64,000 nucleotides of DNA from a virus (IMGVR_UViG_2623620505_000001), one strand, 5' to 3'. Positions 20,182 through 21,452 are shown, counted from the stretch's first letter. The notes: generated by a model not told the origin, from the letters alone. A program made the numbers and translations.

Positions 20182-20189
20182 ATCTTTGG

Positions 20190-20214
20190 CTATGCCTGGC
20201 TAAGCCAGGCATAG
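20190..20214. terminator. perfect inverted-repeat hairpin between convergent lxc and the toxSAS gene
   Basis: ctatgcctggc-taa-gccaggcatag. Confidence 0.65.
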
Positions 20215-20218
20215 GAAT

Positions 20219-21349
20219 TTACACAGTATCAATGTGTCTGCTAAGGAATCTCCCGAACTGATTTGTTGACCCAAAATAGTTAGGATAAGCCTTTTTAAGA
20301 GATTTAATGTTGTTAGTGGCAAGCAGCACCGCAATTAATACTTCAGGATCCGCATCATCCTTATTAAGTTCCTGGAGGGCTTGTTCCGATTCTTTTTTCC
20401 TAAAAGGTTTCACAGAAACAAGAAACTTTCCAGTATCCTTGCCATTTTTTGTTATGGCGTTTCTCATCCTCACCAAAAAGAATCCATTATGGTTTTTGGG
20501 CAGGCTTTTCTTTAGGTTTGCATCTGATGTCAGCTTCATTGCAAATGTATATGTACTTAATTTTGAGCGAACAGATAAAGCCTCCTCCAATGTTTTAAGC
20601 TCTGTTTGATAATTTTTGATGGTTTCATCATCAAGAATACAGGCACCTTCATCATGAGCAACTAGGCATCCAGAAAGATAAAAAAATCTTCTCCACTCAG
20701 GGTGACCTTCATTAGAAGTTTTCAGCTTAATATTTTCAAGTGTATCTATTATCTCCAGACTTGTTGCCCAAGCATGTTGGAGTTCTGTTCTTAGTTGTAC
20801 TTCGATTTTAGTTTTACTCCACGGATTGTTACCGTTTTCTTCATCAAAACAACTATATGCAAGGTGAATGCCACTATATCCGCTTGGCTTTGGAGTTAAA
20901 TAGTCATATTCCTTTAAGATTTTATGCTTGGAGCGACTTTTAACTAGTCGGTCTTTTAGTTTCTTTAGTTGTTCGATGTTTCTAACTATAGCTCTACATC
21001 CGCCAATATCCTGCATTCTAGTAAGGGCTATTGCATTATTTGTTGCGCCGCCGTCAAGACTTGGACGCTCCAGTTTATCAATTATTGTGCTAAGTCTTTT
21101 TAGGCGTCTTGCAACAATAATCTTATTCTCTTTATCAACTTTTTTTGCAGCCCTATCAAGATGATTTTTCATTAGCATCAATGGATATAAATGAAGCTCG
21201 CGGAAATTTTGAATCATTTTAATTGCTTCTTCTCGCTCTGCGCCCTCACAACCATGTCTAATTTTTCTGGCTGCTTTTTCTATTTGAGATTTCGAATATT
21301 TAAGTTCGCATTTTTGGCTTTGATATACTTCACTGCCCATTACTAACAT
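20219..21349 (-). CDS. RelA/SpoT-family nucleotidyltransferase, fused toxSAS toxin-antitoxin (CapRel-like) candidate defence protein
   Basis: ORF track gives 379 aa from a TTG; first ATG at 21349 or 21340. Synthetase-domain motifs DIGGCRAIV, GYSGIHLAYS, EVQLRTELQHAWATSLE; C-terminal ~180 aa of unrelated sequence; AT-rich gene in the slot where P1 has res/mod. Confidence 0.8.
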   Translation of the reverse strand: MLVMGSEVYQSQKCELKYSKSQIEKAARKIRHGCEGAEREEAIKMIQNFRELHLYPLMLMKNHLDRAAKKVDKENKIIVARRLKRLSTIIDKLERPSLDGGATNNAIALTRMQDIGGCRAIVRNIEQLKKLKDRLVKSRSKHKILKEYDYLTPKPSGYSGIHLAYSCFDEENGNNPWSKTKIEVQLRTELQHAWATSLEIIDTLENIKLKTSNEGHPEWRRFFYLSGCLVAHDEGACILDDETIKNYQTELKTLEEALSVRSKLSTYTFAMKLTSDANLKKSLPKNHNGFFLVRMRNAITKNGKDTGKFLVSVKPFRKKESEQALQELNKDDADPEVLIAVLLATNNIKSLKKAYPNYFGSTNQFGRFLSRHIDTV

Positions 21350-21452
21350 CCAGTTCAAATGATTAATGTGTTGTTACATATAATAACAAATCAAGCTAGA
21401 AATCAATGGGTATGAAAATGAAACATACCCATAATGTTACCTAACGTAACTA

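Follow-up and report, generated by a model that had tools for sequence, protein, structure and literature searches.

The AT-rich island at positions 20182–21452 of the 64,000-nt stretch of viral DNA analyzed here (the window) carries capRel(SJ46), a 373-aa fused toxin-antitoxin gene of the toxSAS class (20219–21340, minus strand). Very probably, capRel is a one-gene accessory cassette in the lxc–mat slot of P1-like elements, RD-1, and works there as a capsid-sensing abortive defence. The initial annotation had placed a toxSAS gene in the island; the class it gave is right, and what it did not recognize is that the protein is the published CapRel(SJ46). The predicted product is identical to chain A of PDB 7ZTB at 373/373 residues (E = 1.6e-250), and 372 residues are matched in 9ERV. 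Additionally, it matches the Pfam RelA_SpoT family PF04607 (E = 3.1e-13, 50.4 bits against a cut-off of 27; residues 85–199 of the 379-aa ORF), PADLOC PDC-S33 over nearly its full length (E = 5e-87), and, in sequence, the small alarmone synthetase structures 2BE3, 6EWZ, and 5DEC. The 379-aa ORF is the mechanical call, which begins at an upstream TTG; the start of capRel is the ATG at 21340. The counterpart in phage SJ46 is RefSeq CDS BI168_gp058, and over 19400–22300 the DNA differs from that of SJ46 by a single synonymous base at 21305. Judged by sequence, the island gene is CapRel(SJ46), of the CapRel subfamily of toxSAS, with both activities fused in a single ORF, and we found no evidence that contradicts this identification. 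ORF, Pfam, and PADLOC scans of 20182–21452 return no second ORF with a family match, and hence no separate antitoxin gene. The gene itself is already known and is among the best-characterized bacterial immune sensors.

The two parts of the protein can be laid out on the DNA from the identity to 7ZTB and from published constructs. The toxSYNTH pyrophosphokinase region, which is the toxic N-terminus, corresponds to codons 1–272 (20525–21340, minus strand), a limit set by the capRel(1–272) toxin construct (PMC9712102); the C-terminal antitoxin and phage sensor, a pseudo-zinc-finger domain (pseudo-ZFD) with anchors, corresponds to codons 273–373 (20222–20524, minus strand; PMC9712102). In a numbered alignment, the residues named in that work as ATP-coordinating (R79 and R116) and as the catalytic G-loop tyrosine (Y155, within S-G-Y155-S-G) are all present in the product (PMC9712102), as are the specificity and sensor residues L280 and L307.

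The behavior of CapRel(SJ46) has been described in considerable detail. The toxSYNTH domain alone (residues 1–272) is toxic, while in the whole protein the ATP site is covered by the pseudo-ZFD, which keeps the enzyme autoinhibited, so that wild-type CapRel(SJ46) is non-toxic when no phage trigger is present and protects against phages (PMC9712102). The major capsid protein Gp57 of SECPhi27 binds the pseudo-ZFD with a Kd of about 350 nM (PMC9712102), and further triggers include the capsid proteins of some Bas phages as well as the unrelated Gp54 of Bas11 (PMC9712102, PMC11578894). Once activated, the enzyme pyrophosphorylates tRNAs, which blocks translation and restricts the phage (PMC9712102, PMC11578894). 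In all defence assays published to date, capRel was carried by pBR322 or by the MG1655 chromosome rather than by a native P1-like lysogen. Capsid-triggered tRNA pyrophosphorylation and defence are experimental facts for the identical protein and predictions for the present element. In an uninfected lysogen, the C-terminal domain would be folded on the ATP site and the N-terminal pyrophosphokinase would be off. Upon infection by a sensitive phage, newly made major capsid protein would bind the C-terminal domain and lift autoinhibition, the freed enzyme would pyrophosphorylate tRNAs, translation would halt, and the infection would be aborted. Both the lysogen population and the P1-like prophage resident in it would be protected by this outcome.

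The capRel gene encodes a toxin and an antitoxin, its carrier is a low-copy plasmid prophage, and its slot is that of res-mod in P1; on these grounds it could also be read mainly as a plasmid addiction module that kills segregants and has taken over an addiction role from res-mod, which is itself counted among the P1 plasmid addiction systems (PMC6906374). We consider this reading very improbable. Addiction needs a labile antitoxin that decays faster than the toxin, which cannot occur here because the two are one polypeptide, and wild-type CapRel(SJ46), harmless in the absence of a phage trigger, gives protection against phages (PMC9712102). Furthermore, the window is 94% identical to P1 87,536–94,800, the interval with phd-doc, and, going by this alignment rather than by a reading of the genes themselves, the element very probably keeps phd-doc.

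The island stands out clearly in base composition. Its G+C content is 36.6%, compared to 48.6% for the whole 64-kb window, with flanks at 50.5% on the left and 48.0% on the right, and it lies at z = –4.3 among the 62,730 overlapping windows of 1271 bp. The lowest such window (35.8% G+C) starts at 20211, and all 142 windows that are as low as the island overlap it (142/142); outside the island none falls below about 40%. In a sliding profile, G+C drops from about 50% to 33–39% across roughly 20150–21650 and recovers afterwards. An AT-rich island had been called here from the sequence alone, and it coincides with the G+C minimum of the entire 64 kb. The non-uniform composition also held up when G+C was computed by codon position, as GC3 is 29% for the island gene, 58% for darB, and 52% for mat, a pattern expected of a horizontally acquired gene and not of local skew. 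Lines of 60 nt within capRel have G+C contents of 30–48%, in good agreement with the 33–42% that had been reported for lines counted in the toxSAS gene. The accompanying contrast with darB is less marked than had been suggested, with the single line at 62% a high outlier and the darB average at 52%.

The genes around the island run in the order darB > ulx > lxc > hairpin < capRel, leader, < mat < ref < c8 homologue < cre, which is the P1 order reversed. On the left is lxc (19933–20181, plus strand), a modulator of C1 that is annotated as lxc in SJ46, RCS47, P1, and P7 and provides a conserved flank; on the right is mat (21453–22094, minus strand), for maturation control, annotated in SJ46 and RCS47. 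A 103-aa ORF at 23091–23402 is the putative c8 homologue, and ref was confirmed by Pfam. In P1 and P7 the lxc–mat interval contains the type III res-mod genes, and in the window the same interval contains capRel. When compared to P1, homology stops at window position 20186 and resumes at 21498 (P1 9746 and 3423, respectively), so that it breaks exactly around the res-mod interval. Searches of the whole window with P1 and P7 Res and P7 Mod (tblastn) and with IS1, IS5, and the P1 res-mod interval (blastn) return nothing below E = 3.5. These data bear out the proposal that capRel stands in place of res-mod at this site, as well as the absence of IS1 from the window, for which P1 IS1 gave no blastn match. 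They do not bear out the proposal that IS1 was replaced along with res-mod, because IS1 belongs to another P1 locus: it lies at P1 22,626–23,393 between isaA and isaB (RD-2), about 12.6 kb beyond lxc. Within the mat–lxc interval of P1, IS5 is the sole insertion sequence, and it belongs to the laboratory mutant mod749::IS5.

Pairwise BLAST of the window against eight P1-like relatives allowed us to define the limits of the cassette. On the left, backbone homology ends at 20177–20188 in all comparators, 0–7 bp past the lxc stop where it extends beyond it. On the right, homology resumes at 21468 for RCS47, at 21498 for P1 and P7, at 21524 for JL22, and at 21582–21585 for MH422554, Ro157c2YLVW, and OP279344. 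In agreement with this, a protein alignment shows that Mat residues 1–162 are invariant in seven elements, while residues 163–213 (nt 21456–21608) vary with the adjacent cargo. This variation may represent either a gradient at a recombination junction or diversification of the Mat C-terminus. As read from the alignments, the cassette has a sharp edge on the left, whereas on the right it fades into mat as a divergence gradient about 150 bp long, and the right-hand crossover zone probably lies inside the 3′ end of that gene. The AT-rich leader of capRel, which the initial annotation had taken as the right boundary, is therefore not the boundary, as both the BLAST end points and the Mat alignment put the break within the 3′ end of mat. 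In RCS47 the site is "empty", with lxc and mat separated by only about 49 bp.

We favor whole-cassette exchange by homologous recombination in the conserved flanks as the origin of this arrangement, because mobility genes and terminal repeats are both absent, the cassette is sharply bounded on the left but graded on the right, and the hairpins are specific to each cargo. An island borne by a transposon or an integrase was considered and rejected on the absence of mobility genes and terminal repeats and on the graded right boundary. The cassette itself would have come from a source of lower G+C content and may have spread among P1-like elements by recombination of this kind. As for direction, capRel may have displaced res-mod, res-mod may have displaced capRel, or each may have entered an empty site independently.

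Between the convergent lxc and capRel genes sits a perfect inverted repeat at 20190–20214, CTATGCCTGGC-TAA-GCCAGGCATAG, which is a candidate bidirectional terminator. The arms (20190–20201 and 20203–20214) are 100% complementary, and the perfect 11-bp repeat described previously is found exactly where it had been placed. The stem that forms is 11 bp long with seven G-C pairs and a 3-nt loop, as arms of 12 bp would leave a 1-nt loop that is unable to close. Its folding energy is –20.2 kcal/mol on the plus strand and –19.5 kcal/mol on the minus strand (z = –4.5 and –4.0 against shuffles). Of the earlier description as a hairpin terminator, the strong stem stands; a U-tract 3′ of the hairpin is absent on either strand, with tails of GAAUUUAC (plus) and CCAAAGAU (minus), and a consensus terminator scan does not call it. 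The scan misses the hairpin because no T-run follows the stem on either strand. We therefore treat the terminator role as a candidate one, in which the hairpin would insulate the convergent lxc and capRel transcripts.

The hairpin lies beyond the end of the backbone homology and is thus part of the cassette rather than of the backbone. We compared six cargo types, with the "empty" RCS47 counted as one. Directly past the lxc stop, five of them bear an inverted repeat that is unrelated to those of the others, and none is evident at that position in P1/P7. Together with a left boundary that is sharp to a few bases, the presence of a distinct repeat directly after lxc in five of six cargo types would be compatible with site-specific insertion of the cassettes, with the lxc-side hairpin acting as a recombination site in the manner of an integron attC and not as a terminator. 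However, the hairpins differ in both sequence and length between cargos, no integrase or transposase is found beside the cassettes, and the right edge is graded about 150 bp into mat as homologous exchange predicts; in addition, a hairpin between convergent genes is in the ordinary position for a terminator. We regard site-specific insertion as extremely unlikely, and homologous exchange in the flanks remains the favored reading.

The intergenic region upstream of capRel (21341–21452, minus strand) is the AT-rich leader of the gene, at 28.6% G+C. Within it is a perfect 9-bp inverted repeat at 21406–21432 with a U-rich tail on the minus strand (UUGAUUUCU), located after the mat stop, which folds at –15.9 kcal/mol (z = –4.7) and is a candidate mat terminator and/or an attenuator in the capRel leader. 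A possible promoter of capRel is the sigma-70-like motif TTAACA-16 nt-TATAAT (11/12 matches) at 21452–21479 on the minus strand, in which the –10 hexamer overlaps the stop codon of mat. Promoter-like matches are no commoner in the region than in shuffles, and we take this motif as a lead only. The literature does point to a nearby promoter, as 100–200 bp upstream of the gene gave native expression of capRel from a vector lacking a promoter (PMC9712102), and because that length sufficed, the promoter should lie within 21341–21540. No match to the C1 operator with up to three mismatches is found in 20182–21500, and all 14 operator-like sites of the window fall elsewhere (0/14 in this interval), so control of capRel by a C1 operator was rejected. 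An operator-free island fits expression of capRel during lysogeny, and we hypothesize that the gene is constitutive in the lysogen, driven by its own promoter in or beside the AT-rich leader. A known structured RNA was likewise rejected for the leader and the hairpins, which give no Rfam match at E ≤ 1.

The 11/12 promoter motif is upstream of the terminator-like hairpin at 21406–21432, and both are upstream of the capRel ATG. Motif and U-tailed hairpin (21406–21479) could together form an attenuated capRel leader. It is also conceivable that expression of the cargo is wired to mat or to late transcription, for example with CapRel attenuated while the element itself grows lytically, which would spare production of its own capsid, or with the Mat C-terminus co-evolving functionally with the cargo. 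The reading arises because each cargo type has its own lxc-proximal hairpin and its own last ~50 Mat codons, together with the promoter and hairpin in the leader; we judge it unlikely. The cassette data may help in asking how a capsid-sensing abortive system tolerates the capsid of its own prophage.

The slot itself has been published, as RD-1 and as variable region 1 (PMC6906374, PMC9603915). Venturini et al. (2019) define RD-1 as P1 3,469–9,749 (res-mod with IS5) and RD-2 as P1 21,540–24,243 (isaA-IS1-isaB), two separate hot-spots (PMC6906374), and res-mod is variable region 1 of 54 P1-like plasmids (PMC9603915). Both studies observed that variable regions coincide with low-G+C loci in P1-like plasmids (PMC6906374, PMC9603915). 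The RD-1 papers treat the same interval as we do here and do not name the gene as CapRel or as a defence system; for pTZ20_1P, the RD-1 list includes a "putative phosphokinase" (PMC6906374), and the plasmid with this entry carries a CapRel allele of 74% identity. A hotspot at the mat–lxc junction had thus been sensed correctly by the initial annotation, which did not recognize that it was already published as RD-1.

Comparison of P1-like elements confirms that the junction is variable, with constant flanking genes, differing cargo, and the empty site in RCS47. The slot holds capRel in SJ46 and the window, the 74% CapRel allele in 673R5 and CP027133, a PIN_12 protein in JL22, AraC and EAL genes in Ro157c2YLVW, and a DUF2971 gene in MH422554. 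Genes for an AraC-type HTH protein and an EAL protein are also found in the slot of OP279344.1 (1821–3446), a record described as "P1 isolate del res del mod", and of L009 (1821–3395); the OP279344.1 cassette is of the same type as that of phage Ro157c2YLVW.

To see how common each cargo is, we counted gene matches against the 698 PLSDB records that carry ulx-lxc, with each record scored for the gene itself irrespective of its position relative to the slot. AraC-HTH plus EAL is the most frequent of the cassettes tested, in 149 records, followed by P1-type res in 108 (48 of them at ≥99% identity), DUF2971 in 90, the ~74% CapRel allele in 52, PIN_12 in 23, and CapRel with ≥95% identity to the SJ46 protein in 21. 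A CapRel allele is therefore present on about 10% of P1-like plasmids in PLSDB and is absent from P1, and the gene is far from universal at this position. We found the island in 13 complete E. coli genomes out of 5,426, in every case on a plasmid. These cargo counts are new but descriptive only; the gene and the slot are both published, and nothing in either is new.

The 74% CapRel allele occupies the same lxc–mat slot. The two P1-borne alleles share 64% identity in the C-terminal part compared to 77% in the N-terminal part, with low-identity windows at residues 241–270, 301–330, and 361–373, and also at 121–150. The idea that divergence is confined to the sensor domain is thus only partly true. 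With regard to the other cargos, the PIN_12 protein gives a partial match to PADLOC PDC-S34, and the AraC plus EAL and DUF2971 cargos, both among the most frequent in PLSDB, give no match in the defence library. The proven defences in the slot are res-mod and CapRel only, and the term "defence hotspot" used in the initial annotation holds for these two; the roles of the AraC plus EAL, DUF2971, and PIN cargos are unproven.

The closest known system is CapRel(SJ46) of Salmonella phage SJ46 (PDB 7ZTB; Zhang et al. 2022, 2024), a phage which has the same protein at the same lxc–mat position, one synonymous base apart. The window element is an E. coli P1-like phage-plasmid and not SJ46 itself, and its 18000–25000 interval is 100% identical to AP026465.1 and NZ_CP128965.1. 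In SJ46 (5944–8901), a Tn1721 transposase gene lies about 250 bp beyond mat, whereas the window has intact ref, the c8 homologue, and cre. As the window keeps ref intact at the place of the Tn1721 gene, its element is a less rearranged relative of SJ46.

The type III restriction-modification systems EcoP1I and EcoP7 of P1 and P7 occupy the same slot on the same strand as capRel and also serve the prophage in an anti-phage function. The genes are unrelated, however, with DNA cleavage and self-methylation in place of capsid-triggered translation arrest, and the cassette is 5–6 kb compared to 1.3 kb for capRel, with no homology anywhere in the window. Bicistronic toxSAS pairs such as FaRel2/ATfaRel2, and PhRel/ATphRel of mycobacteriophage Phrann, share the toxSYNTH fold, tRNA pyrophosphorylation, and a prophage location with CapRel (PMC9712102), but the antitoxin of CapRel is a fused C-terminal domain that is also the phage sensor. 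A defence slot of another phage family is likewise flanked by core genes and holds interchangeable, often AT-rich cargo without mobility genes of its own; the flanking genes of the P1 slot differ from it, and many P1 cargos (AraC plus EAL, DUF2971) are without a demonstrated defence function.

A reading of composition alone was sufficient in this case to flag a real, horizontally acquired defence gene and to place it rightly with respect to P1. The descriptive additions made here, namely the limits of the cassette, the gradient in mat, the cassette-specific hairpins, and the frequency of CapRel near 10%, may aid a pangenome of defence cargo in P1-like elements.

Several other segments of the window are unrelated to P1. 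The counterpart of the P1 IS1/isaB locus (RD-2) is at 6279–7397, where about 1.1 kb without relation to P1 is dominated by a 364-aa ORF (6312–7406, minus strand) that has no Pfam or PADLOC match. Segments without P1 homology are also found at 54789–55884, at the tciA-C locus, with a 275-aa ORF (54807–55634, minus strand) that has no PADLOC match, and at 62936–63808, near upfA/repA. A further 7-kb block at 33530–40530 is absent from P1 and lies in the pmgT–lxr region (published as RD-5 or region H). The segments at 6279–7397, 33530–40530, and 54789–55884 give no convincing PADLOC match, and Pfam returns DUF551 and Ead/Ea22-like families only. These come from small ORFs of the 7-kb block, which include one DUF551 protein and two Ead/Ea22-like proteins that are typical of lambdoid early regions. 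Apart from the island, G+C comes near 40% only at the left edge of this block, around 33363–33840.
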